A stretch of DNA of 64,000 nucleotides from positions 19,411 to 83,410 of the forward strand of contig JACQAL010000036.1 of NCBI GenBank assembly GCA_016195025.1. Direction: 5' to 3'. This stretch comes from Bacteroidota bacterium (GTDB lineage: Bacteria > Bacteroidota > Bacteroidia > Palsa-948). Under the pieces are notes generated by a model. The model was not told the origin of the DNA. It saw only the letters and a list, made by a program, of their open reading frames with translations, and did not search any database. Of the stretch, positions 7,670-59,977 are shown piece after piece (the first letter of the stretch is position 1; every line of letters begins with the position of its first letter). The translations under genes and the position numbers were made by a program.

Positions 7670-8377
7670 ATGAAACGTATTTTTTTCGCAGTCATGCACT
7701 GCACGCCCAAGCAATTCGGAAAATTATTTCAATTGCTCAACAAAGTGATTGGCAAACTCACTGCTAATTCCAACATCTACGGCAATCCCGACCCTTCGCT
7801 GGGTGTTCTGCAAAACGAGGTGGTGCCTTTTGAAAAAGCCATTGCCGATGCAAAAAAAGGAGGCAGCGAAGCCACCGAAGCCCGCAACAAGGAAGCGCTG
7901 AAAGTTCACGGCTTGCTCAAAGAGGAACTTACCTATGTGAACAAGGTTGCAAAGAACGACAAGGACACCATTCTTCTTTCGGGTTTTGATGCAAGCGAAG
8001 AGCCGGAACCCGCTGAAGTTCCCGATGCTCCTGTAATTAAAAAAATTGACGATGGCGATTCACCGGGCACTGCAAAAATTTTTCTGGCGAAAACCACCAG
8101 CCCGCTCCTGACCAAAAAACAGAAATTAACTTTCATAATAGAAATGACCACCACCGTTTCTGATGAAAGCAGTTTCAAAACAGTTTTGCTCACGCATAAT
8201 TCAAAAAAACTGATTGTGCCCAACCTCGTTCGCGGGCAGGAAGTGTTCATTCGTATTTCGGTAATGAACGCCCGCGGGCAGAGCAACTGGAGTACGGTCG
8301 TTTCTTTCATTTCAAGAACGGGAGTAAACCCTCCATCGCCATCGCCCAATCCGAATCCGCTGCCGCCTGCCGTTTAA
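7670..8377 (+). CDS. hypothetical protein with an FN3-like C-terminal region and a P/S/N-rich tail
   Basis: No signal peptide. C-terminal beta-rich block and PSPSPNPNPLPP tail. No family recognised. Confidence 0.4.
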   Translation: MKRIFFAVMHCTPKQFGKLFQLLNKVIGKLTANSNIYGNPDPSLGVLQNEVVPFEKAIADAKKGGSEATEARNKEALKVHGLLKEELTYVNKVAKNDKDTILLSGFDASEEPEPAEVPDAPVIKKIDDGDSPGTAKIFLAKTTSPLLTKKQKLTFIIEMTTTVSDESSFKTVLLTHNSKKLIVPNLVRGQEVFIRISVMNARGQSNWSTVVSFISRTGVNPPSPSPNPNPLPPAV

Positions 8378-8385
8378 CCGTCATG

Positions 8386-8441
8386 GAGCAGCCCTGCCTG
8401 TCATCACTAAACAAAAAAACCGATGGCGGGCAGGGCTTTTT
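8386..8441 (+). terminator. rho-independent terminator after 7670..8377
   Basis: GC stem gccctgcc(8391-8398)/ggcagggc(8429-8436) with inner catc/gatg pairing, followed by TTTTTCG. Confidence 0.45.
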
Positions 8442-8712
8442 CGTAACCGTTCGCGGAGTTACCGTCATCGTTCACCGAGTTACCGATATACTTCACCGGC
8501 TTACCGATGTACTTCACCGGCTTATCGTCATACATCAGGGGCTTATCTCCATATTTCAGCCGCTTACCTCCATACTTCAGCCGCTTATCGATGTACCTCC
8601 ATACTTCACCCATTTACCGTCATACTTCAGGGGCTTATCGTCATACTTCGATGGCTTACCGATATACATCACTCGCTTACCTCCATCGATAAGTCGCTTA
8701 CCTATCATCATT
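8440..8712. repeat. tandem repeat of about 12 copies of a 21-bp unit (consensus cttaycgnyatacttcasygg)
   Basis: Direct reading shows the units cttaccgatatacttcaccgg, cttaccgatgtacttcaccgg, cttatcgtcatacatcagggg, cttatctccatatttcagccg, cttacctccatacttcagccg and so on. Both strands translate it as open 7-aa repeats (KPVKYIG on minus, HRLTDVL on plus). Confidence 0.85.
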
Positions 8713-8825
8713 TTCCGATTGATTCTGCATATTACTTTGTATTCTGCAAAATTCCGATAGATGTAGGGAACAGAATTTTACTTTTCTCTGAAAAAGATGC
8801 TGCGATGTAAATAGAAAAATCAGTT

Positions 8826-10151
8826 TCAACCTTTTTCCTTCAGCAGCGATTCAATGAAAGAAATCATTTCCGCTTTTTCTTTTTCATGCTCGCTGCCGGT
8901 GGCGGGACCCGAATAGCCCGTGTGAATTTTCCGCACGTTTCCTTTTCTGTCAATAATAATTGTGGTGGGAAATGACATAACATGATTGAGCATGGGCAAT
9001 GCTTTGTCGGCATCTTTCGGATTAAATCCCGTAATCAGAAAATCATAACCGGCATTGAATTTATGTTGAAGGCGCAAAACATTTTCTTTTGCTTTCTCAA
9101 ATGCATCCGCTTTCTCGAAACACAATCCAATTATTTCAACCCCTTGCGATTTATATTTATTGTAAAGTTCGGAAAGAAAAATGGTTTCGTCCATGCAATT
9201 GGGGCACCACGAGCCCATGATTTGAAGAATCACTACTTTGTTTTTATATTTTTCATCCGAGAGCGAAACTTTTTTGTTCTCCGGATTCGGAAAAGTGAAA
9301 TCTACTTTTGGAAAACTTTTCTTCAGGAACGTGAGCGAGTCGGCATTTCTCAATCTGAAAGTGGAATCTTTATTTGCCAGCCATGTTTCCTGGTGGTGAA
9401 TGCCGGAATAAAATTCTCCCCAAATGGTGCTGTCTTCCAGAATCTGCGCGTGAAACACAAACGCATGCGAGCCATCAAAGCAGGAAAGCAGCATGTAATT
9501 TCCAAACACGCATCCTTCGAGATAGCGGTAGTCGCCCGTTTCGGTCAGAAAAGTTCCGGTGGCGCCATGCGCAGTTTGCCTGAACACTCCAATGGCGTAA
9601 GAACTATCGGGCTGATTGGGGCTGAACAGGCATTTCCATTTTCCTTCGAACAAAAAGTTTTTGTCATACTCCGGGCAATCGAAGCGGTTGGTTTCTCCGT
9701 AAACGGCTTTGAAGGGAATTACATTTTTATCTTTCCGCGAATGATTGTACCAGTTTCCTTCCAGCAGTGTGTCGCCTGAAATTTTGCATCGGAACTCCGA
9801 ATCAAACACGGGCATGCGGATAAAAACGGAATCGTTGCTGAAAGAAATTTCATTTACAATGATTTTTTCTTCTGCATTGTGAATAGTAATTTTGGTTGAA
9901 TCGTTTTGAAACGTTAAATCAAAATTGAAAGGAAGAATCAAGCCGGTGGAATCAACCAGAGTTAAAATGCCTCTCCATTTTCCTTCTTTGAGTAAAGAAA
10001 TTTTTTTTGCATTTCCGCAGGAGAATAGAATAGATATAAAAGCAATACAGGAAATAAGTAAAATGCAATGCAAATCCGCGAACACATGCGAACACCGCGA
10101 ATTATTTTGTGTTTTGTTCGCAGTGTTCGAATACATTCGCATAGTTCGCAT
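8826..10151 (-). CDS. TlpA-like thiol:disulfide oxidoreductase lipoprotein; the true start is probably downstream of 10151
   Basis: WCPNC redox motif in a C-terminal thioredoxin fold, with the lipobox LFSCGN. The first ~100 nt of the ORF coincide with a CGAA-periodic repeat array. Confidence 0.7.
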   Translation of the reverse strand: MRTMRMYSNTANKTQNNSRCSHVFADLHCILLISCIAFISILFSCGNAKKISLLKEGKWRGILTLVDSTGLILPFNFDLTFQNDSTKITIHNAEEKIIVNEISFSNDSVFIRMPVFDSEFRCKISGDTLLEGNWYNHSRKDKNVIPFKAVYGETNRFDCPEYDKNFLFEGKWKCLFSPNQPDSSYAIGVFRQTAHGATGTFLTETGDYRYLEGCVFGNYMLLSCFDGSHAFVFHAQILEDSTIWGEFYSGIHHQETWLANKDSTFRLRNADSLTFLKKSFPKVDFTFPNPENKKVSLSDEKYKNKVVILQIMGSWCPNCMDETIFLSELYNKYKSQGVEIIGLCFEKADAFEKAKENVLRLQHKFNAGYDFLITGFNPKDADKALPMLNHVMSFPTTIIIDRKGNVRKIHTGYSGPATGSEHEKEKAEMISFIESLLKEKG

Positions 10152-10166
10152 TAGTTTATCTGCAAC
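10040..10166. promoter_or_regulatory. CGAA-periodic repeat array with inverted symmetry between rseP and the TlpA-like gene
   Basis: Read on the minus strand: ctaaTGCGAActaTGCGAAtgtaTTCGAAcacTGCGAAcaaaacacaaaataaTTCGCggtgTTCGCatgtgTTCGCgg. Confidence 0.5.
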
Positions 10167-11504
10167 TCATTTGAAGATTCTGAAAATATCGTTGCCCAGC
10201 GCGTAAACCATCAGAGAGATTAATAAAAACATTCCGACATACTGCGCATATTCCAGAAACTTATCGCTGGGTTTTCTGCGGGTGATAACTTCGTACAATA
10301 AAAATAAAACGTGCCCGCCATCGAGCGCGGGAATCGGGAGAATGTTCATGAACGCAAGCACGATGGAAAGAACTGCGGTGAGTTCCCAGAACGGCTCCCA
10401 TTCCCATTGCGGTGGAAATAAATCTCCGATGGAAATAAAACTTCCCACGCCTTTGTACGCGCCCGTTTTGAAATTGAAAATAAGTTTGAACTGGCGGATG
10501 TAGTCCGTAAGTTTTTCAATTGCTTTGTGAATTCCCGCAGGGAAGGACTGAAAAAATCCATATTGCGTAACATTGAAGTCGTAAATTTTTTCTTTGCGCA
10601 ATTCTTTAAAGTCAATAAACGCTGGCGCCACTCCGATTTTTCCGGTACTGTCTGCCATAACAGAAATTACCAGCGTTTCTTCTCCGCGCTTTACAGTTAA
10701 TTTGACCTGCGAATTTTTTTTACCTGCCATCCGCGTCCTGAATTCATCGTAATAATTTATTGTGCTGTCATTAAGCGCAAGAATATGGTCTTTCTTTTTT
10801 ATTCCGGCTTTTTCCGCGTTGGAGTTTTCCGAAAATCCTCCTATGTAAAACGGAATGCGTGGAAAAAGAAATGGCGCGCGTTTGTCCACTAATTTCTCTA
10901 TGAAATCTTTTGGAATGACGAGCGTGGTGTCTTTCCCGTTTCTGTTTATCTGAACGTTTTTTCCATAGAGCATTTCGTGAATCACGTTCTGAAAGTTTTC
11001 CACGTTTTTTCCATCCACAGAAATAATTTTATCTCCGTTTCTGAAACCCACATCTTCCGCCAGCGAATCAATGCACCATATTCCGTCTTTCAAATTTGCG
11101 GTGGGCAAATATTTTTCTCCGAACGTAAAAAGCAGCATGGCATAAATTCCCATAGCGAGAATTAAATTCATCGTCACACCTCCAACCATCACAATCAATC
11201 TTTGCCATGCGGGCTTGCTGCGGAATTCCCATGGCTCGGCAGGTTTTTTCATCTGCTCTTTGTCCATGCTCTCATCAATCATTCCGGAGATTTTCACATA
11301 ACCTCCGAGCGGAATCCATCCGATGCCGTATTCCGTATCGCCTTTTTTTATTTTGAAGAGAGAGAACCAGGGGTCGAAGAAGAGATAAAATTTTTCCACG
11401 CGCATTTTGAAAAGTTTGGAAGGAATAAAATGCCCGAGTTCGTGCAGCACGACTAAAATTGAAAGTGAAAGAATAAGTTGCGAGGCTTTAATTAGAATTT
11501 CCAT
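10167..11504 (-). CDS. rseP: RIP metalloprotease RseP (site-2 protease with PDZ domain)
   Basis: HELGHF zinc motif near the N-terminus, multiple TM segments, PDZ region. Conserved dxr-rseP neighbourhood. Confidence 0.85.
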   Translation of the reverse strand: MEILIKASQLILSLSILVVLHELGHFIPSKLFKMRVEKFYLFFDPWFSLFKIKKGDTEYGIGWIPLGGYVKISGMIDESMDKEQMKKPAEPWEFRSKPAWQRLIVMVGGVTMNLILAMGIYAMLLFTFGEKYLPTANLKDGIWCIDSLAEDVGFRNGDKIISVDGKNVENFQNVIHEMLYGKNVQINRNGKDTTLVIPKDFIEKLVDKRAPFLFPRIPFYIGGFSENSNAEKAGIKKKDHILALNDSTINYYDEFRTRMAGKKNSQVKLTVKRGEETLVISVMADSTGKIGVAPAFIDFKELRKEKIYDFNVTQYGFFQSFPAGIHKAIEKLTDYIRQFKLIFNFKTGAYKGVGSFISIGDLFPPQWEWEPFWELTAVLSIVLAFMNILPIPALDGGHVLFLLYEVITRRKPSDKFLEYAQYVGMFLLISLMVYALGNDIFRIFK

Positions 11505-11512
11505 ATGAAAAT

Positions 11513-12685
11513 TTAGAGGGCAAAAGTAGGATAAAATTCCATAGCGGTTTTCCTTGCTTCCGAATCTGAATTAACAAAATCACTGTATGAAGGCTTGGCA
11601 ATAAACGGAACCTTTGAAATTGTTTTTTCAATCACTTCGGGGATTTTTGTAAAGGCAATTTTTTCTTCGAGAAATAATTTAACTGCAACTTCATTTGCTG
11701 CGTTCAGAATGCACGGAGCGTTGCCACCTTTCTTCATTGCTTCGAATGCAAGTGGAAGACAGCGAAAAGTTTTTGTATCGGGTTTTTCGAAAGATAAATT
11801 TGGATAATCAATAAAATTAAAACGCTCGAATGTTGAAGGCAAACGATTCGGATAACTCAGCGCGTATTGAATCGGCAATTTCATATCCGGCAAACCCATT
11901 TGGGCTTTCATTGAGCCGTCTTCAAATTGCACTATGGAATGAATAATACTTTGCGGATGAATGATGACTTCAATTTGTTCGGGCTTGAGATGAAACAACC
12001 ATTTCGCTTCAATCACTTCGAGTCCTTTGTTCATCAGCGTGGCGGAATCAATCGTGATCTTCGCACCCATTTCCCAGTTGGGATGTTTGAGTGCCTGCGC
12101 TTTTGTAACCGAAGAAAGAAACGCAGCATCTTTTCCTCGGAACGGACCGCCAGAAGCAGTGAGATAAATTTTTTCAATTTTGTTTTCCCATTCTCCCGCC
12201 ATGCACTGAAAAATTGCAGAGTGCTCCGAATCCACAGGATAAATATTTACTCCGTTTTCTTTTGCGAGCGCGGTGACCAACTCTCCCGCGACAACCAGCG
12301 TTTCTTTATTTGCCAGCGCAATATTTTTTTTCGCTTTGATGGCGGAAATAACAGAAGCAAGTCCCGCATAGCCGACAATTCCTGCAAGCACAACATCTAT
12401 CGAATCCATTTGCACCACTTGCTCAATGGATTTATTTCCTGCGTAAACTTTTATCTGATGAGATGCAAGAGCAGATTTTATTTTTTCATATTTGCTTTCA
12501 TCAGCTATCACCACGCAGTTGGGTTTGAACTCTATTGCCTGCTGAATTAACAGATCAGCATTGCCGTTTGCCGTGAGAACTTCCACCACAAAACTTTCGG
12601 GATGTGATTTTATCACTTCCAGCGCCTGAGTTCCTATTGAACCTGTGCTGCCGAGGATGGCTATGTGTTTTTTCTTTTGCTTCAT
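11513..12685 (-). CDS. dxr: 1-deoxy-D-xylulose 5-phosphate reductoisomerase
   Basis: N-terminal ILGSTGSIG NADPH-binding motif and family-wide similarity. Confidence 0.9.
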   Translation of the reverse strand: MKQKKKHIAILGSTGSIGTQALEVIKSHPESFVVEVLTANGNADLLIQQAIEFKPNCVVIADESKYEKIKSALASHQIKVYAGNKSIEQVVQMDSIDVVLAGIVGYAGLASVISAIKAKKNIALANKETLVVAGELVTALAKENGVNIYPVDSEHSAIFQCMAGEWENKIEKIYLTASGGPFRGKDAAFLSSVTKAQALKHPNWEMGAKITIDSATLMNKGLEVIEAKWLFHLKPEQIEVIIHPQSIIHSIVQFEDGSMKAQMGLPDMKLPIQYALSYPNRLPSTFERFNFIDYPNLSFEKPDTKTFRCLPLAFEAMKKGGNAPCILNAANEVAVKLFLEEKIAFTKIPEVIEKTISKVPFIAKPSYSDFVNSDSEARKTAMEFYPTFAL

Positions 12686-12719
12686 TCGTAGATTCGTATA
12701 GATTCGTTTTTCGTAGATT
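12686..12719. repeat. intergenic CGAA-periodic element (copy 1) filling the M23-stop to dxr-start spacer
   Basis: cattcgtagattcgtatagattcgtttttcgtagatt holds three ATTCGT units at ~10-bp spacing. It closely resembles the elements at 50307 and 59939. Confidence 0.6.
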
Positions 12720-13605
12720 AAAAAACCATATACTCCTGCGGGTCAATCGGAGTGCCGTTATACCAGAGTTCAAAATGCAAATGCGGTCCGCTGGTTTGCT
12801 CGCCAGAGTTTCCAATCACCGCAATGGCTTCGCCTGCTTTCACAAACTGCCCCGCTTTTTTCATCAGCACCGAGCAATGCTTGTATGCCGACACCAGATT
12901 ATTTGAATGTTGTATCTGAATGGTATAACCCGTTTCAGAAGTCCATCCCGAAAATAAAACTGTTCCGTCAAGCGCGGCTTTGATGGGTTCATTTTCTTTC
13001 GCGGCAATATCCACTCCGTAATGTTCTTCCGCAGAGTTGAACGAAGCGGTTACCATTCCTTTCACAGGAGTGAAAAAGAAAAAGCTGCTGATTCCTTTTC
13101 CGTTTTTATTTTCTGAAAACGCCAGCGAATATTTATCCTGCGATTCCACTTCCGAACGGAATGCGACTTCTTCTTTGGTGGGTTTGATGTCTGCATTTTT
13201 CGGAACAGGATTTTTTTCTGTTTTATTTTTTTGAACCGCTGTGTCTCCTGAAACATTTCCGTTCAGAATATTTTTCAGGTTGTCCATTGCCTGCGTGCGC
13301 AGGTTCAATTCATATTGCAGCGAATCAAGTTTCAGCGAAAGATTGATGAGTTCCTGCCTCGTATTCACTTCCAAGCCGTAGCCGGGAATGTATTCGCGCA
13401 GCGGAGTGAATGCAACTAAACTTACGGTGAGCGTTATCATCACAATCGAAATCAATCCCACAAGCACAAAAATATTTAATGGGGTAAGCTTGAGAGAAAA
13501 TTGCTCCTCGAAAGAATCATCGTTCATCACCACCAGCCGGTAGCGATTGCGGATTTTCGCCCAGAAACCCTGTTTTTTCTTTTCTTCCATATAATAAGGT
13601 AGCAA
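12718..13605 (-). CDS. M23 family metallopeptidase with an N-terminal TM anchor
   Basis: HxxxD...GNSG...HLHFE motifs of LytM/M23 peptidases. Confidence 0.75.
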   Translation of the reverse strand: MLPYYMEEKKKQGFWAKIRNRYRLVVMNDDSFEEQFSLKLTPLNIFVLVGLISIVMITLTVSLVAFTPLREYIPGYGLEVNTRQELINLSLKLDSLQYELNLRTQAMDNLKNILNGNVSGDTAVQKNKTEKNPVPKNADIKPTKEEVAFRSEVESQDKYSLAFSENKNGKGISSFFFFTPVKGMVTASFNSAEEHYGVDIAAKENEPIKAALDGTVLFSGWTSETGYTIQIQHSNNLVSAYKHCSVLMKKAGQFVKAGEAIAVIGNSGEQTSGPHLHFELWYNGTPIDPQEYMVF

Positions 13606-13637: not shown

Positions 13638-13662
13638 CCCCTCTCTTTGCGAAAGAGAGGGG
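13638..13662. promoter_or_regulatory. perfect 25-bp GC-rich palindrome (11-bp arms) in the divergent M23/sir intergenic region
   Basis: cccctctcttt gcg aaagagagggg. No flanking T or A run, so it is not a canonical terminator. Confidence 0.5.
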
Positions 13663-13741
13663 AAGGGGTAAGTTCCAAAAAATAAATTTGGTGGTTTCAA
13701 AAAGGTTTGTACATTTGCCTACTAAATTGGTCGAGTTTCAA

Positions 13742-13831
13742 ATGAAGACAAAAATTACTTTCCAGACAATTATGACAATGTGTTGCTGCTGCTATATGCG
13801 GACGAGGAAGGGTTTTGTTTTTAAGCGATAA
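13742..13831 (+). CDS. 29-aa Cys-codon leader peptide MKTKITFQTIMTMCCCCYMRTRKGFVFKR upstream of the sulfate-assimilation operon
   Basis: ATG at 13742. Four consecutive Cys codons at 13781-13792, four Met codons, stop TAA at 13829. A terminator hairpin follows directly. Confidence 0.45.
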   Translation: MKTKITFQTIMTMCCCCYMRTRKGFVFKR

Positions 13832-13855
13832 AAAAATAAAACGTAACAGGCAAAA

Positions 13856-13888
13856 GCCCTTCCGAATAAAACCGCGAAGGGCTTTTTT
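13856..13888 (+). terminator. intrinsic terminator/attenuator in the sir leader, with a competing antiterminator
   Basis: Stem gcccttc(13856-62)/gaagggc(13876-82) followed by TTTTTT. The upstream ggaaggg (13805-13811, inside the leader ORF 3' end) can pair with cccttcc (13857-13863). Confidence 0.45.
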
Positions 13889-13934
13889 GTTGCCCGGAAT
13901 CCGAACAAGAATCATAAAAAAGAAAAAATAAAAT

Positions 13935-16055
13935 ATGCAAAGTTTCAGAACAGAGTTAGAAAATCCAATCGTAGAAAAAGACATTCTCGATTTGGAAAAA
14001 AAGATTTCTCTTTTCCGCGAAGGGAAAATTGATTCCGAAAAATTCCGTTCGCTTCGCCTTGCGCGCGGAGTTTACGGGCAGCGCCAGCAGGGAGTGCAGA
14101 TGATTAGGATAAAAATTCCGTTTGGAAAACTTTCGGTAAATCAATTGCTCGCCATCGCGGATATTTCGGATGAATATTCAACAGGCAATCTTCACCTCAC
14201 CACGCGTCAGGATGTGCAGATACATTATGTGTCGCTCGACAAAACTCCTGAACTCTGGGCAAAACTCGAGGCGAGCGACATCACGCTCCGCGAAGCGTGC
14301 GGAAACACAGTACGCAACATCACCGCGTCTGACATCGCGGGCATTGACCCGAAAGAACCTTTTGATGTTACGCCTTACGCGAACGCACTCTTCAAATTCT
14401 TTTTGAGAAATCCTATTCAGGAATCTCTCGGAAGAAAATTCAAGATTGCTTTTTCTTCGAGCGATGACGACACCGCTTATACTTTCATTCACGATTTAGG
14501 ATTTATTCCTAAGGTGAAAATTGAAAATGGAAAAATTGTTCGCGGTTTCAAAGTGGTGATTGGAGGAGGACTTGGTGCTCAACCATTCCTCGCACACACG
14601 GCTTATGAATTCCTGCCGGAAGAAAAAATTATTCCATTCGCGGAAGCAGCAGTCCGCGTGTTTGACCGCTATGGAGAAAGAACCAACCGCCACAAAGCGC
14701 GTTTGAAATATCTCATAGCGAAAATAGGGCTGGGAGAATTTTTGAGATTGGTGGAAGAAGAAACGCTCTCTTTGAAATCTGTTTCGTCAGAAGTTAAATT
14801 TGAATCTGAGATTCCGGATTTATCTCATCTGCAAAATACATTTACAACTTTAAAAATTTCTGACGACAGAAAATATCAGGAATGGTTAGACACAAACACA
14901 TTTGAACAAAAACAGCAGGGATATTTTGCGGTAGGAATAAATGTTCCGTTGGGAAATATAAAAACGAATAACGTTAGGAAGTTCGCAGAGATTGTAAAAA
15001 AATATTCTGCGGATGACATTCGTATTACTATCTCGCAAAACTTTTTGTTGCGCTTTGTTCCGAAACAGGCACTTCCCGCATTGTATAAAGAACTTGACGC
15101 AATCGGTTTGACTTTGCCCGGCTTTGGAAGCATTGCCGATATAACGGCTTGCCCGGGAACAGATACCTGCAATTTGGGAATTTCAAATTCCACAGGCATT
15201 GCGCTCGAACTTGAAAAAGTTATCCGCAATGAATTTTCGGAATTAGTTTACGAAAAGAATATTAAAATAAAAATCAGCGGGTGCATGAATTCCTGCGGAC
15301 AGCATTCGCTCGCGCACATCGGTTTTCACGGAAGCACTTTCAAGGCAGGCGCGCACGTTGTTCCCGCGTTGCAATTGCTTCTCGGTGGCGGTGCAACAGG
15401 AAATGGCGAAGGAAGAATCTCAGATAAGATTGTAAAAATTCCTTCCAAGCGCGGTCCCGCTGTTCTGAGAGCGATTCTTCGTGATTATGAAAAAAATTCT
15501 TTGCAGGAAGAAACCTTCAACGAATATTTTGACGCGCAGGGAAGAGAATATTTTGAAAATCTTTTGAAAGAGTTTACGGATTTATCTGCGCTCACCAATG
15601 ATGAATATAAAGATTGGGGATATGATGAAGCGTTCAAACCTGCAATCGGAGTTGGAGAATGCGCTGGAGTGCAGATTGATTTGGTGGCAACATTATTTTT
15701 TGAAGCAGAAGAAAAACTGGATTCTGCATTCACTTCTTTCGCTGAAAAACTTTTTGCCGATTCAATTTATCATTCATACAGCACATTTATTCATTCTGCA
15801 AAAGCAATATTGCTCACAAAACAAATTCAAACCAATTCTCAGTACAGTGTGCTGAATGAGTTTGAAAAACATTTTATACAGACAGGAGAAGATAAATTTC
15901 AGAATGGATTCAAAACTTTAGTTCTCCAAATTAACCAGACAGAACCTGAAAAAGAATTCGCTGAGTTTTATTTCACGCAGGCAAAATCATTTTTGAAATG
16001 GGTGAAAGAATACCGCGAAGAACAAATTAAAAAGGAAAGTTTAATCACAGCATAG
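13935..16055 (+). CDS. sir: assimilatory sulfite reductase hemoprotein (siroheme/[4Fe-4S], ferredoxin-type) with a C-terminal extension
   Basis: Nitrite/sulfite reductase ferredoxin-like half-domains and Cys clusters (CPGTDTCNLG, SGCMNSCGQH). Sits in an operon with cobA, cysH and cysD. Confidence 0.8.
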   Translation: MQSFRTELENPIVEKDILDLEKKISLFREGKIDSEKFRSLRLARGVYGQRQQGVQMIRIKIPFGKLSVNQLLAIADISDEYSTGNLHLTTRQDVQIHYVSLDKTPELWAKLEASDITLREACGNTVRNITASDIAGIDPKEPFDVTPYANALFKFFLRNPIQESLGRKFKIAFSSSDDDTAYTFIHDLGFIPKVKIENGKIVRGFKVVIGGGLGAQPFLAHTAYEFLPEEKIIPFAEAAVRVFDRYGERTNRHKARLKYLIAKIGLGEFLRLVEEETLSLKSVSSEVKFESEIPDLSHLQNTFTTLKISDDRKYQEWLDTNTFEQKQQGYFAVGINVPLGNIKTNNVRKFAEIVKKYSADDIRITISQNFLLRFVPKQALPALYKELDAIGLTLPGFGSIADITACPGTDTCNLGISNSTGIALELEKVIRNEFSELVYEKNIKIKISGCMNSCGQHSLAHIGFHGSTFKAGAHVVPALQLLLGGGATGNGEGRISDKIVKIPSKRGPAVLRAILRDYEKNSLQEETFNEYFDAQGREYFENLLKEFTDLSALTNDEYKDWGYDEAFKPAIGVGECAGVQIDLVATLFFEAEEKLDSAFTSFAEKLFADSIYHSYSTFIHSAKAILLTKQIQTNSQYSVLNEFEKHFIQTGEDKFQNGFKTLVLQINQTEPEKEFAEFYFTQAKSFLKWVKEYREEQIKKESLITA

Positions 16056-16056
16056 A

Positions 16057-16122
16057 ATGAAAAAGTTTCTGATAAAATATAAGTACGAATACTGTTGTTG
16101 CTGTCGAATGTGTCGAATGTGA
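16057..16122 (+). CDS. second Cys-codon mini-ORF MKKFLIKYKYEYCCCCRMCRM (21 aa), starting 1 nt after the sir stop
   Basis: ATG at 16057. Codons tgt tgt tgc tgt at 16093-16104 plus two more Cys. Stop TGA at 16120. Contains the tandem gtcgaatgt x2. Confidence 0.35.
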   Translation: MKKFLIKYKYEYCCCCRMCRM

Positions 16123-16184
16123 AGTAACTAAAACCGGAAACAAAACACCTGAAACTAAAAACTAATAACTATAAACTAAAAATT

Positions 16185-16958
16185 ATGTCAAACAAAAAAA
16201 TACAACCCAAACTAACTCTCGCAGGCGCAGGTCCCGGAGATCCGGATTTAATCACTGCGAAAGCAATCAACGCACTCGGAAAAGCCGACATTGTTTTGTA
16301 CGATGCGCTTGTAAATCCCGTTCTTCTTAAATATGCTTCACCGAATGTGAAAAAGATTTTCGTAGGAAAAAGAAACGGGCAGCATTCACTCAAGCAGGAG
16401 CAAATCAATAATCTCATAGTGGATTTAGCATTTACTTACGGACACATTGTTCGTTTAAAAGGAGGCGACCCATTTGTTTTCGGGCGCGGCTACGAAGAAA
16501 TTGAATATGCAGAATCATTCAACATAGAAACAGAAGTGATTCCCGGAATTTCTTCTTCAGTAGGCGTTCCTGCACGCGCTGGAATTCCTGTCACGCACCG
16601 TGGAGCCAGCGAAAGTTTCTGGGTGATTACCGGAACTACGCGCACAGGAGAACTTTCAAAAGATATTGCGCTCGCTTCACAGAGCACAGCAACAGTTGTC
16701 ATCCTGATGGGCGTTCATAAACTTCACGAGATTGTGGAAGTTTATAAATCATCCGGAAAAGAAAATCTTCCGATAGCGCTGATTCAGAACGGAACTTTGC
16801 CCGAAGAAAAAATTGCAGTGGGAACAATTTCTACCATAGAGAAAATCGTGAAAGAAAAACAAATCGGTTCGCCTGCAGTGATTGTTGCCGGAGAAGTTGT
16901 GAAACTTCATCCTGAATTTGTAGCGGAAGAAGTTTTGGAAAAATATCTGTTAAATTAA
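16185..16958 (+). CDS. cobA: uroporphyrinogen-III C-methyltransferase (siroheme branch)
   Basis: GAGPGDPDLIT motif and tetrapyrrole methylase fold. Confidence 0.85.
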   Translation: MSNKKIQPKLTLAGAGPGDPDLITAKAINALGKADIVLYDALVNPVLLKYASPNVKKIFVGKRNGQHSLKQEQINNLIVDLAFTYGHIVRLKGGDPFVFGRGYEEIEYAESFNIETEVIPGISSSVGVPARAGIPVTHRGASESFWVITGTTRTGELSKDIALASQSTATVVILMGVHKLHEIVEVYKSSGKENLPIALIQNGTLPEEKIAVGTISTIEKIVKEKQIGSPAVIVAGEVVKLHPEFVAEEVLEKYLLN

Positions 16959-22612: not shown

Positions 22613-23950
22613 TTAGAAGAGTTTGTGAGTTTCTAAAAACTTTGTTGTGTAATTTCCTTTTCGGAAATCCTCGTTCTCCATTAGTTTGATGTGAAAAGCA
22701 ATTGTAGTTTTCACGCCTTCAATTACAAATTCTCCGAGCGCGCGGTGCATTTTTGAAATGGCTTCTTCGCGTGTTTGCGCAACGGTAATCAGTTTTGCAA
22801 CCATTGAATCGTAATAAGGCGGAATCACGTAGCCGGCATAAATGTGAGTGTCCACGCGAATGCCATGCCCGCCCGGTACATGCAGCGTGGTGATTTTTCC
22901 CGGTGAAGGACGGAAATCATTTTGCGGATCTTCGGCATTAATGCGGCACTCGATGGAATGCAGTTGCGGAAAATAATTTTTCCCTGAAATAGGAACTCCG
23001 GCTGCAATCTGAATTTGCTCGCGGATTAAATCGTAGTCAATCACTTCTTCCGTGATCGGATGCTCGACTTGAATCCGTGTGTTCATCTCCATGAAATAAA
23101 AATTGCGGTGCTTGTCAACCAGAAATTCTATTGTGCCCACACCTTCGTATTTAATTGCGTTGGCAAGTTTCACAGCGGCTTCGCCCATAGCGTTGCGCAG
23201 TTCCGGAGTCATAAACGGGGAAGGTGTTTCTTCAGCAAGTTTCTGATGCCGTCTTTGAATCGAGCAATCCCGTTCGGAAAGATGACATGCTTTTCCATAT
23301 TGGTCGCCCGCAATCTGAATTTCTATATGGCGCGGCTCCTCAATAAATTTTTCCATGTACATGCCGTCATTTCCAAAAGAGGCGAGCGCTTCTTTGCGCG
23401 CAGATTCCCAGGCGTGCTCGATTTCTTTTTCTTCGTGAACAATGCGCATTCCTTTTCCTCCGCCACCCGCAGTTGCTTTCATCAAAACGGGATAGCCGAT
23501 TTTTTTTGCAGTGGCTTTTGCATCTTCCAAACTTTCGAGCAAACCATCCGAGCCGGGAACGCAGGGAACTCCGGCTTTTTTCGCAGTGGCTTTTGCCGAT
23601 GCTTTGTCGCCCATTGCATCAATCATTTCCGGTGTGGGACCGATGAATTTTATTTCGTGCTCGGCACAAATCTGGGCGAACTTGGAACGCTCAGATAAAA
23701 ATCCATAGCCGGGATGAATGGCATCTGCATTGGTGATTTCAGCTGCAGCAATAATATTTGGAATGTTCAGATAAGAATCTTTGCTTGCTGGCGGACCTAT
23801 GCAAACCGCTTCATCGGCAAAACGAACGTGTAAAGAATCTTTATCGGCAGTGGAATAAACGGCAACCGTTTTTATTCCCATTTCCTTGCAGGAACGAATG
23901 ATTCGCAGGGCAATTTCCCCGCGATTGGCTATAAGTATTTTTTTAAACAC
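22613..23950 (-). CDS. accC: acetyl-CoA carboxylase biotin carboxylase subunit
   Basis: ATP-grasp biotin carboxylase beginning [19 protein letters not shown]..., with strong conservation throughout. Confidence 0.9.
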
Positions 23951-24065
23951 AAATTTGGTTTAAGGTTATTGGTTTATTAGTTTTAGTTGATTGGTTTTTA
24001 GTTTTTGTTAACCAGAACCGGCAACTAAAAACCAAAATCAATAACTAAGAAACAAAGAACTAAAA

Positions 24066-48908: not shown

Positions 48909-50306
48909 TTGCCTGCTCGTTACCTTATATATTATATGAAGAGAACAAAAGTTGCAGAGTTGCTTAACAGCACCGACTTCGGAAAAGAAGTTACTGTAAT
49001 GGGCTGGGTGCGCACCAAGCGTGAAAGCAAGAGTATTGCATTTGTTGCAGTGAACGATGGCTCTACCATTCATAATATCCAGGCAGTAGTAGATATAAAT
49101 AATGAATCGCTGAAATTAATTTCTACCGGAGCGTGCGTTTCAATTACCGGAACTTTAGTTCAATCACAAGGCAAAGGACAAACCTCCGAAATACAAGCAA
49201 AAAAAATTGAAGTGTTTGGAACAGCCGATGAAAGTTTTCCGCTTCAGAAAAAAGGACACACGCTGGAATTTCTTAGAGAGATTGCACATTTACGTCCACG
49301 CACAAATACGTTTGGCGCGGTGCTTCGTGTTCGCCACGCGCTTGCTTACGGCATTCATAAATTTTTTAACGACAAGGGATTTTTTTATTTGAACTCCCCA
49401 ATCATTACGGGAAGCGATGCGGAAGGCGCAGGAGAAATGTTTCACGTAACAAATTTGAATCTGGAAAATCTTCCGAAGAAGGATGGCAAAATAAATTTTG
49501 AAGAAGATTTTTTTGGAAAGGAAACTAACTTAACCGTATCAGGACAATTGGAAGGAGAATGTGCCGCAACAGGAATTGGTTTGATATATACTTTCGGTCC
49601 CACTTTCCGAGCGGAAAATTCAAACACGCCTCGCCATCTCGCAGAATTCTGGATGATAGAACCTGAAATGGCGTTCTATGATATTCACGACAACATGGAT
49701 CTCGCGGAAGAGATGTTAAAATATTTGGTGAAGTACGCGCTTGAACATTGCATGGATGATTTGACTTTCCTGAACAACATGTACGATAAAGAACTTTTGA
49801 ATCGCCTGCACTCGGTGGCGAATTCAACCTTTAAAAGAATTACTTACACGGAAGGAATTGAAATTCTTGAAAAGTCAAAACAGAAATTTGAATTCCCTGT
49901 GAAATGGGGAATTGATCTGCAGCGCGAGCACGAAAGTTTTCTGGTGGAATATTTTAAAACGCCCGTCATCGTTACCGGATATCCAAAGGAAATCAAAGCA
50001 TTTTACATGAAGCAGAATGAAGATGGAAAAACAGTTCGCGCGATGGATGTTTTATTTCCGTATGTAGGAGAAATAATTGGCGGCTCGCAGCGCGAAGAAA
50101 ATTATGACAAACTTTATTCGAGAATAAAAGAACTCGGAATAAAAGAAGAAACATTGTGGTGGTATCTCGAACTCAGAAAATTCGGAACCTGCCCGCACGC
50201 GGGATTTGGTTTGGGATTAGAGCGATTGGTTTTGTTTGTAACCGGAATGCAAAATGTGCGCGATGTAATTCCATTTCCGCGCACGCCTAAGAATGCAGAG
50301 TTCTAA
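48909..50306 (+). CDS. asnS: asparagine--tRNA ligase
   Basis: Class II aaRS motifs plus an OB anticodon-binding N-terminus. The start may be the MKRTKVAEL at 48936. Confidence 0.9.
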
Positions 50307-50340
50307 TTTCGTAAATTCGTAATGATTCGTTATCCGTACC
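50307..50340. repeat. intergenic CGAA-periodic element (copy 2) between the asnS stop and the rpoN start
   Basis: tttcgtaaattcgtaatgattcgttatccgtacc immediately before the ATG. It is about 85% identical to copy 3. Confidence 0.6.
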
Positions 50341-58877: not shown

Positions 58878-59938
58878 CTATAGAAAATCTCATTAACGAA
58901 GCAACCGGACTTCTCAAAGAATTAATTTCAATTGAATCATTCAGCACGCAGGAAAATAAAACTGCCGATGCACTTCAGAATTTTTTTGAAAGACACGGAG
59001 TCAAAACTTTCCGGAAAGGAAATAACGTGTGGGCTAAGAACAAATATTTTGATTCTACAAAACCAACGATTCTTCTCAACTCCCATCACGATACAGTAAA
59101 ACCAAACGCGAGCTGGACACTGAATCCATTTCAATCAATAGTGAAAGATGAAAAACTTTTTGGTTTAGGAAGCAATGATGCGGGTGGTGCGTTAGTTTCT
59201 ATCATCGCAACTTTTCTTTACTTCAATGAAAATAAAAATCTGAAATATAATTTTATTATAGCAGGAACTGCGGAAGAAGAAAATTCCGGAAAAGGCGGAG
59301 TGGAATTAATGCGCGATGAAATAGGTAAAATAGATTTTGCTATTGTGGGTGAGCCCACTGAAATGAAAATGGCAGTTGCTGAAAAAGGATTGATGGTGCT
59401 GGATTGCATTGCAAAAGGAAAAGCGGGACACGCTGCGCGCGACATAGGAGAAAATGCAATTGTGAGTGCGATAAAAGATATTGAATGGTTTCATTCTTAC
59501 CAGTTCGATAAAGTTTCTGAAACGCTTGGACCAATTAAAATGACTTGTACAATTATAAATTCCGGAAGCCAGCATAATGTAATTCCTGATATCTGCAAGT
59601 TCACCGTTGATGTGCGCACAACAGAAGTTCATTTGAATGAAGTGGTTTTAGAAACTATCCGTGCGAATGTGAAAAGCAAAGTAACTCCGCGCTCCACGAG
59701 ATTGCAGCCATCCGGCATAGATAAAAATCAGTTGCTTGTTAAGACGGCAAAGAAACTTAGAATAGAAATTTTTGGTTCGGCAACAACTTCGGATATGGCG
59801 TTGTGGAAAGTTCCCGCAGTGAAAATGGGTCCCGGAAAATCTGAGCGTTCGCATACTGCGGATGAATTTATTTACTTAAAAGAAATTGAAGAAGGAATCA
59901 AAATCTATATTAAACTCTTGGAAGAAATTGTTTTATAG
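58874..59938 (+). CDS. argE: M20-family deacylase (acetylornithine deacetylase / succinylornithine desuccinylase)
   Basis: M20 metal-binding motifs (HHDTV, GTAEEE). Confidence 0.75.
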   Translation: MTIENLINEATGLLKELISIESFSTQENKTADALQNFFERHGVKTFRKGNNVWAKNKYFDSTKPTILLNSHHDTVKPNASWTLNPFQSIVKDEKLFGLGSNDAGGALVSIIATFLYFNENKNLKYNFIIAGTAEEENSGKGGVELMRDEIGKIDFAIVGEPTEMKMAVAEKGLMVLDCIAKGKAGHAARDIGENAIVSAIKDIEWFHSYQFDKVSETLGPIKMTCTIINSGSQHNVIPDICKFTVDVRTTEVHLNEVVLETIRANVKSKVTPRSTRLQPSGIDKNQLLVKTAKKLRIEIFGSATTSDMALWKVPAVKMGPGKSERSHTADEFIYLKEIEEGIKIYIKLLEEIVL

Positions 59939-59977
59939 TTCATTCGTATATTCGTAGCGATTCGTTATCCGTACCCT
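59939..59977. repeat. intergenic CGAA-periodic element (copy 3) between the argE stop and the argH start
   Basis: ttcattcgtatattcgtagcgattcgttatccgtaccct, then ATG. Confidence 0.6.

Follow-up and report, generated by a model that had tools for sequence, protein, structure and literature searches.

A 32-nucleotide array of phased heptamers at gene junctions of a Bacteroidota genome and its probable relationship to mobile elements carrying GxxExxY genes

Among described families of short bacterial repeats, the closest analogue of the element reported here appears to be the REP/REPIN-RAYT (TnpA_REP) system, in which short extragenic repeats are found either singly or as inverted doublets around a short spacer, lie mostly in intergenic DNA near the ends of coding sequences, and are accompanied by one small gene that is flanked by inverted repeats and greatly outnumbered by orphan repeats. 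The same properties characterize a sharply bounded 32-nt repeat, which we name E, identified in a 64,000-nt stretch of a Bacteroidota contig (hereafter the window; 40% G+C), since E occurs both singly and in inverted doublets (24 of 130 copies among the matches listed) and all 7 of 7 associated genes lie between inverted repeats. However, each REP is palindromic, whereas E is built of four direct heptamers; the RAYT is a HUH Y1 transposase, whereas the protein associated with E is predicted to adopt a PD-(D/E)XK fold (PF13366 / TIGR04256) and not that of a Y1 HUH enzyme; and, unlike REP sequences, the same 32-nt sequence of E recurs across phyla. E is thus best classed neither as a REP nor as a classical MITE.

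Pairs of E do resemble MITEs, such as the Correia elements, in that they are non-coding, measure approximately 80-110 nt, possess inverted arms around an internal sequence amplified in homologous form, show polymorphism among relatives, and have the same arms as a gene-bearing counterpart, here carrying a GxxExxY gene as candidate mobilising enzyme. They differ in lacking a visible target-site duplication and a recognisable DDE transposase, in having phased heptamer arrays as arms, and in that single arms are the commonest form. Terminal inverted repeats were found for the pairs and for site 2 of the window (see below), though not for sites 1, 3 and 4 alone. The associated gene is also reminiscent of free-standing homing endonucleases and other selfish nuclease genes, being a tiny nuclease-fold gene with a D...ExK motif, wedged among host genes and patchily distributed in relatives, but no intron or intein is involved, and a dispersed repeat, not a single host site, flanks it. 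Similarly, Rickettsia palindromic elements are short selfish repeats able to sit in frame within coding sequences, as one copy of E does, yet they are palindromic and restricted to a lineage, and an in-frame E was seen only once. Iteron and response-regulator arrays resemble E in that a 6-7 nt core is repeated directly at close to helical spacing, suggestive of cooperative binding by a multimer; E, however, is unlinked to an origin or regulon, dispersed, polymorphic, and found in either orientation. TIGR-Tas arrays were discarded as a match, as E has no variable spacers.

An initial annotation had reported four junctions of the window with a shared architecture of units 8-10 bp apart, ending in CGTAnnnT. 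A pattern scan places exact matches to TTCGTAnATTCGTAnnnATTCGTTnTnCGTA at 12685-12715, 50308-50338 and 59943-59973, all on the + strand; allowing up to 3 mismatches adds no match in the window, and 100 dinucleotide shuffles yielded 0. A looser scan for unit clusters likewise found no other four-unit cluster. Three of the four sites are thus copies of one element, with the formula ATTCGTA-n-ATTCGTA-nnn-ATTCGT(T)-(A/T)T(T/C)CGTA-G, that is, four ATTCGTA heptamers plus G, while the rseP-tlpA junction (site 2) proved to be an inverted pair made of other units. The periodicity holds, although as fixed start-to-start distances of 8, 10 and 7 nt (TTCGTA cores at offsets 0, 8, 18 and 25) rather than a loose spacing, and the proposed ending is not conserved, E finishing in ...TTCGTA(G). 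The sites and their borders are as follows.

12684-12716, + strand: E copy 1 (site 1), solo arm, antisense to the flanking genes M23 and dxr; heptamers ATTCGTA 12684-12690, ATTCGTA 12692-12698, ATTCGTT 12702-12708 and TTTCGTA 12709-12715, then G 12716.
12718-12720 and 12683-12685: borders of site 1, the M23 stop (TTA) and the dxr ATG (CAT), respectively.
10074-10152, no strand: site 2, gene-less inverted pair of a TTCGC/GCGAA dialect; GCGAA-type arm 10074-10102, loop of ~13 nt 10103-10115, TTCGC-type arm 10116-10152.
10167-10169 (- strand) and 10071-10073 (- strand): neighbours of site 2, the rseP stop and the probable tlpA TTG start, respectively.
50307-50338, + strand: E copy 2 (site 3), solo arm, sense to asnS and rpoN; heptamers TTTCGTA 50307-50313, ATTCGTA 50315-50321, ATTCGTT 50325-50331 and ATCCGTA 50332-50338.
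50304-50306 and 50341: borders of site 3, the asnS stop, directly after which E begins, and the rpoN ATG, 2 nt past E.
59942-59973, + strand: E copy 3 (site 4), solo arm, sense to argE and argH; heptamers ATTCGTA 59942-59948, ATTCGTA 59950-59956, ATTCGTT 59960-59966 and ATCCGTA 59967-59973.
59936-59938 and 59978: borders of site 4, the argE stop, 3 nt before E, and the argH ATG, 4 nt past E.

Each copy fills the entire 32-39 nt spacer separating two co-directional genes, whose names are backed by Pfam (M23 peptidase/Dxr, AsnS/RpoN, and M20 peptidase (ArgE-like)/ArgH); the earlier description had missed that site 1 is antisense and sites 3 and 4 are sense. At site 1, 2 nt separate heptamer 4 from the M23 stop, and heptamer 1 shares bases with the dxr ATG (- strand: TACGA|ATG). 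The argE-argH junction is the sole non-overlapping one of its arg gene row. E has no self-complementarity, its units being direct heptamers, and the solo copies have predicted RNA folds of 0 to -7 kcal/mol, no more stable than those of shuffled sequences and unlike a REP-type palindrome; site 1, at 0 kcal/mol, is less stable than all 200 of its shuffles. Pairing between 5' and 3' untranslated regions, with an arm at the gene start and a reverse arm at the stop, was also considered and rejected, as no partner arm follows rpoN or argH and none precedes M23.

Site 2 is a related dialect and not a fourth copy of E. Its first arm holds three GCGAA-type units and its second four TTCGC/TTCGA units, spaced ~10 nt apart, with a predicted RNA hairpin of -38.6 kcal/mol (z = -5.1), and it shares the string GTGTTCGCATG with the arrays surrounding a GxxExxY gene in the relative L135. 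The longest thioredoxin-fold ORF at this locus (tlpA; 441 aa, ATG at 10151, - strand) opens within site 2, translating it as MRTMRMYSNTANKTQNNSRCSHVFAD. When relatives are compared, TTG at 10073 emerges as the likely start instead, giving a lipoprotein-like ...ILFSCGN sequence, in which case site 2 would create a mis-called N-terminus. Two further arrays were observed in the window, namely TACGAAT/GTCGAAT units with a run of AACTAA units at 16084-16182, ahead of the gene at 16185, and an inverted pair of TTAGTTT / AACTAAA arrays at 23955-24062, in the gap between two genes whose ends are at 23950 and 24066; both arrays could belong to this class of element, either in decayed form or as separate dialects.

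Several other features of the window were recorded in passing. A 27-codon ORF at 13742-13825 (+ strand) encodes MKTKITFQTIMTMCCCCYMRTRKGFVF, with four consecutive Cys codons, preceded by the TAnnTTTG-like TACATTTG at 13710-13717, followed by a hairpin and T-run at ~13855-13892, and located just upstream of a 706-aa gene (13935-16055) that corresponds to a NIR_SIR (sulfite/nitrite reductase) protein in relatives; the region 13710-13892 resembles a cysteine leader-peptide attenuator. A perfect hairpin, CCCCTCTCTTTGCGAAAGAGAGGGG (13640-13665), is present in the divergent region ahead of the M23 gene, and the ORF at 8383-8760 contains a 21-nt tandem repeat (8427-8715; 7 in-register copies of a 113-nt reference at 62-79% identity). 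Further, TTTTATCCTACTTTTGCC at ~11515-11535 (- strand), located at the dxr 3' end or in the dxr-rseP spacer, is conserved in the window and L129-L134; it holds a Bacteroidota -7-like TAnnTTTG and may represent an internal rseP promoter.

Orthologous junctions were compared in relatives. The Dxr protein of the window itself has a 100% identical counterpart on a 225-kb MAG contig labelled 'Bacteroidetes bacterium'. In L129, L130 and L132, with Dxr proteins 87-88% identical to that of the window, the M23 stop is separated from the dxr ATG by 0-1 nt (...TTTTAA|ATG...), and rseP from tlpA or the next gene by 0-4 nt, so that sites 1 and 2 represent extra DNA in the window; relative to close relatives, the window elements are insertions. 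In L131 and L135 (Dxr 82%), degenerate reverse-complement copies lie directly past the M23 stop, at the same junction as site 1, and that of L135 retains nearly the same phasing. Absence of the copy at 87-88% Dxr identity yet presence at 82% would imply precise loss, repeated insertion, or a Dxr identity that misreports the gene tree. A metagenome scan with RpoN recovered 7 relatives, one of which was informative (L121, RpoN 54% identical), in which asnS and rpoN are 16 nt apart and E is absent. The 90 kb of loci fetched via RpoN or Dxr contained no E-like match, defined as agreement at 19 or more of 28 specified positions, and no target-site duplication is visible at the junctions inspected (L148, L088 and the window sites).

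The rpoN copy behaves differently from that between M23 and dxr. Between L109 and the window, the alignable stretch of E differs by one substitution and one indel, its 'free' bases included, while the surrounding region is 74% identical in nucleotides and nearby third codon positions are ~47% identical. As this copy is far better conserved than neutral DNA, unlike the M23-dxr copy that is decaying in the equally distant L131 and L135, its conservation suggests selection or an acquired host role. Shine-Dalgarno sequences are largely unused in Bacteroidota, and solo arms, being unstructured as RNA, would suit a leader in this group; one might speculate that the rpoN copy is kept as such a leader directly before the start codon.

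Scanning one genome per species with TTCGTnnATTCGTnnnnATTCGTnnnnCGT identified at least 120 loci carrying E, all of them, among the matches listed, in metagenome-assembled genomes (MAGs). These loci are labelled as Patescibacteria/CPR (59, of many classes), Bacteroidota (46), Gammaproteobacteria (6) and other or unlabelled (9), such that, among the matches listed, the same 32-nt sequence is common to several phyla with its phasing fixed. A sequence logo of 138 copies among the matches listed shows a sharp 32-33 nt boundary with unconserved flanks, as well as conservation at positions left free by the pattern (A-1 in 120/138, A5 in 136/138, T25 in 138/138, A30 in 118/138 and G31 in 77/138). As in the window, most of the Bacteroidota copies inspected have ATTCGTT as unit 3 and AT(T/C)CGTA after it, whereas CPR copies end mostly in ATTCGTAATTCGTAG; some Bacteroidota MAGs carry tandem expansions of up to ~290 nt. 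One copy, in L046 (~7680-7712, - strand), lies in frame within a FemAB-like coding sequence, adding LRITNLYECTNN between ...AEKKGIS and KKNDVEEF.... Genes adjoining E are miscellaneous housekeeping genes with no shared theme and no regulon. Two E-bearing contigs (L001 and L063) belong to a MAG labelled Bifidobacterium breve; as their 36-38% G+C does not fit Bifidobacterium, for which about 59% is typical, they are probably mis-binned or mislabelled.

The description of a non-random intergenic repeat family without a named motif was borne out. Rfam searches returned only tRNAs in the window at the gathering threshold and nothing at the elements of L148 and L088 at E<=1, and an exact-string literature search for the repeat retrieved no paper. 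A collection of viral contigs yielded 0 matches to the E pattern, which was taken to exclude a phage origin of E, and no relative of the GxxExxY query alignment.

Using a simple and admittedly crude ORF map, 143 copies of E among the matches listed were classified by genomic context.

Sense, between co-directional genes: 43/143.
Antisense, between co-directional genes: 42/143.
Between divergent genes: 13/143.
Between convergent genes: 8/143.
Inside a long ORF call: 16/143; in just 3 of these does an open frame extend for 50 codons or more on both sides.
At locus edges: 21/143.

Sense and antisense copies are therefore equally frequent, but the element itself is polar. In 21/43 sense copies a start codon is at most 10 nt from heptamer 4, and in 25/42 antisense copies a reverse-strand stop is at most 9 nt from it (both among the matches listed). 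The heptamer-4 end is commonly 2-10 nt from the neighbouring end of a coding sequence, be it start or stop, while the heptamer-1 side shows a broad gap with a median of ~75 nt. Pairing follows the same polarity: among the matches listed, 24/130 copies have an inverted partner on the upstream, heptamer-1 side, with loops mostly of 9-44 nt, and 0/130 have one downstream, on the heptamer-4 side, head-to-head pairs being found only at gene-scale distances of 445-5743 nt. This polarity is what would be expected if heptamer 4 were the outer end of an element residing in a tiny intergenic spacer. Two other readings of orientation were set aside: polarity set by the replication strand, an idea raised by the three + strand copies of the window, as neighbouring copies more than 300 nt apart share orientation in 11 cases and oppose it in 17; and sigma-70, Bacteroidota -33/-7 or ECF promoters, for which no convincing hexamers were seen by eye and orientation to genes is random. 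Free positions are complementary between paired arms in only 38/88 cases, most of them contributed by a few perfect palindromes, which argues that the pair is not maintained by hairpin selection; a conserved hairpin in pairs was rejected on this ground. Pairs in L038 and L044 have homologous loops across several loci and two CPR MAGs, indicating that pairs have been amplified as units.

Closer inspection of tail-to-tail pairs 0.4-2.3 kb apart revealed that 2 of 4 enclose a small ORF, corresponding to PF13366 (PDDEXK_3) and TIGR04256 ('GxxExxY protein'). All 7 of 7 GxxExxY genes examined are flanked by an inverted array on one side and a direct array on the other, the arrays being of the E type around five, of the site-2 type around one and GC-rich around one. 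Four of the seven (L070a/L070b, L088 and L091, at three loci) came from loci ascertained through E. In comparison, L136, L140 and L148 were fetched by the GxxExxY protein alone (L136 is orthologous to the L070a locus and is not counted separately), and each has exactly two E-like matches, on the '-' strand upstream and on the '+' strand downstream of the gene. In L148, for example, the upstream stop is followed by 11 nt, an arm ACGAATAACGAATTTGTACGAATATACGA overlapping the ATG, the gene and its stop, 20 nt, an arm ATTCGTAAATTCGTACAAATTCGTAATTCGT, 7 nt and the next ATG; the overlap of the reverse-complement arm with the GxxExxY ATG (TACGA|ATG) is the same as that of site 1 with the dxr ATG. L140 has degenerate arms in the same arrangement, L136 has arrays on both sides of its gene, and E-type arms surround those of L088, L091 and L070a. 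The gene of L135 lies between dxr and rseP, with ATGCGAAT arrays upstream and TTTTCGCAGTGTTCGCATGAATTTCGCATCGC arrays downstream in the dialect of site 2, and the second gene of L070 (L070b) has inverted GC-rich arrays on either side. The window copies of E share the exact architecture of the arms bracketing GxxExxY genes. All seven genes thus occupy the 'loop' position, whereas host genes face heptamer 4.

Presence of the gene varies among relatives, L135 and P0013 possessing one and the 64-kb window having none. Only 4 GxxExxY genes were found in ~0.93 Mb of E-centred loci (among the matches listed), so that most E copies are orphaned. Identical GxxExxY proteins were found across samples in the same genomic context only, and nothing therefore points to recent movement of the gene-bearing copies. 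No further gene that might mobilise the arrays was seen beside them, and a tblastn search of plasmids with GxxExxY found no match.

GxxExxY proteins match PF13366 at E = 1e-21 to 1e-28 as well as TIGR04256, and the family comprises 6,287 clusters at 50% identity (E <= 1e-3). A 2012 survey of PD-(D/E)XK proteins lists the function of PF13366 as 'Unknown', with multiple transfers between divisions (PMC3424549). In a 12-sequence alignment, D78, E88 and K90 are invariant and the D...ExK motif is intact. An AlphaFold model (pLDDT 84.6) matches the folds of Cas4, lambda exonuclease and splicing endonuclease, with Foldseek hits to Cas4 SSO0001 and lambda exonuclease at E ~1e-4, albeit at TM scores of only 0.45-0.49; a PDB sequence search returned chance-level matches only. 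With the D...(D/E)xK motif and a modelled alpha-beta-beta-beta-alpha-beta core, the protein is predicted to be a PD-(D/E)XK nuclease. Proteins associated with the ATTCGTA dialect share 39-54% identity among themselves and 29-37% with the two from the TTCGC and GC-rich dialects, which, in this seven-locus sample, hints that array dialect co-varies with GxxExxY clade. The literature searched contained no paper tying PF13366 to repeats, although curator notes may exist outside it. Several N-terminally extended GxxExxY gene calls were seen to read ACGAAT arrays as ...RITN..EYTN.. peptides. In others (P0233, P0252, P0150, P0013 and P0025) the call fuses RuvC, a PaaI-like thioesterase or Dxr to the GxxExxY domain, consistent with genes inserted so close behind host genes that stops were lost or are read through.

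We consider it probable that the window contains three solo arms and one gene-less pair, in a sister dialect, of a compact selfish GxxExxY-associated element. Under a rival reading that we regard as unlikely, E and its pairs would be an independent REP- or MITE-like family moved by other machinery, and the GxxExxY gene a homing-like parasite entering pair loops through homology to the 32-nt arms, which would be its target rather than its ends. The constant loop position of the gene fits this reading, as does the large excess of gene-less over gene-bearing pairs; the frequent differences between paired arms at free positions (38/88 complementary) also fit independent arms better than freshly copied inverted repeats, and some homing endonucleases, e.g. 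I-Ssp6803I, use the PD-(D/E)XK fold. Against it, the arrays adjoin no other candidate for a mobilising gene, and the apparent shift of dialect with GxxExxY clade suggests specific recognition, a pattern that homing would nevertheless predict as well.

A host cis-regulatory array, that is, a promoter or operator ahead of housekeeping genes bound by a host factor, seems still less likely. Although a long ORF starts within 20 nt downstream, in the TTCGTA direction, of 54/143 copies among the matches listed, antisense copies after stops are as common as sense copies (42 vs 43) and the downstream genes have no common theme, in place of the related genes at constant orientation and position that characterize a transcription-factor regulon; nor does the consensus, by eye, contain sigma-70 or Bacteroidota -33/-7 hexamers. 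Orthologous positions are similarly divided, for the near-invariance of the rpoN copy in L109 (one substitution and one indel, against ~47% identity at third codon positions) and the phasing fixed across phyla would favour a host function, but E is absent from L121, L129, L130 and L132 and from 90 kb of relatives' DNA, is decaying between M23 and dxr in L131 and L135, and occurs as tandem expansions and in frame within a coding sequence (L046). Of the initial proposal of a protein-binding array, binding thus survives as the most plausible molecular role of the heptamers, while a host regulatory array does not sit well with these observations. Least probable, and in our estimation very improbable, is an action of E as RNA, whether as a site of processing, a signal for termination-reinitiation or an unstructured leader promoting initiation. 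Solo copies are indeed unstructured (site 1 at 0 kcal/mol), sense copies finish 2-10 nt ahead of start codons, and site 2 would form a strong intercistronic hairpin, yet sense and antisense copies, whose RNAs are complementary, are equally common and equally placed at the ends of coding sequences, Rfam has no match, and free positions of pairs show no hairpin-preserving covariation. The processing or reinitiation signal suggested earlier is therefore disfavoured, orientation being random to transcription and solo copies having no RNA structure. On balance, presence/absence in relatives, equal orientations, the lack of a regulon and the in-frame copy favour end-repeats of a selfish element over a host array.

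For the GxxExxY-associated element, the intact form would measure ~0.5-0.6 kb and consist of a reverse-complement arm (CTACGAAT TACGAAT nnn TACGAAT n TACGAAT), one small GxxExxY / PDDEXK_3 gene, and a direct arm (ATTCGTA n ATTCGTA nnn ATTCGTA ATTCGTAG), with heptamer 4 outermost at both ends; residing in very short intergenic spacers, its outer ends would abut the stop and start codons of its neighbours. The four phased heptamers may be binding sites of the element's own nuclease, which would drive either transposition or homing into pre-existing pairs. Loss of the gene from most copies would leave arm-loop-arm pairs, able to amplify as units in the manner of MITEs or REPINs, and single arms, the latter presumably through deletion of the centre and one arm, and the relics in the window would now part genes that abut in relatives. 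Some observations sit less easily with this model: solo arms that fill 32-39 nt spacers would call for a very clean deletion or a separate route of insertion, and conservation of the rpoN copy fits a host function better than junk. The missing target-site duplications at the inspected junctions, the lack of any sign of recent movement in the gene-bearing copies and the predominance of orphans also count against it.

These results tie a dispersed 32-nt repeat, in a testable manner, to a large protein family without an assigned function. More tentatively, and with somewhat less than even confidence, we propose that GxxExxY / PDDEXK_3 proteins (>6,000 clusters) might be the mobilising nucleases of an undescribed class of minimal mobile elements, whose ends would consist of 6-7 nt direct repeats, arrayed in phase and in a dialect particular to each clade, whose gene-less pairs and solo arms would be scattered over gene junctions of Patescibacteria, Bacteroidota and other uncultured lineages, and some of whose arms, such as that at rpoN, may have been recruited as gene-start context. 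The arrays can serve annotation by marking gene boundaries and mis-called starts, e.g. that of the 441-aa tlpA ORF, and they illustrate a route by which abutting genes (TAA|ATG) become separated. If true, the proposal would account for many of the unusual spacers in MAGs, along with fused gene calls and low-complexity 'hypothetical proteins' (RITN/EYTN peptides). If the nuclease does move the arms, they would together constitute a partnership resembling that of REPINs and RAYTs, built on a different enzyme fold and extending across candidate-phyla bacteria and Bacteroidota.
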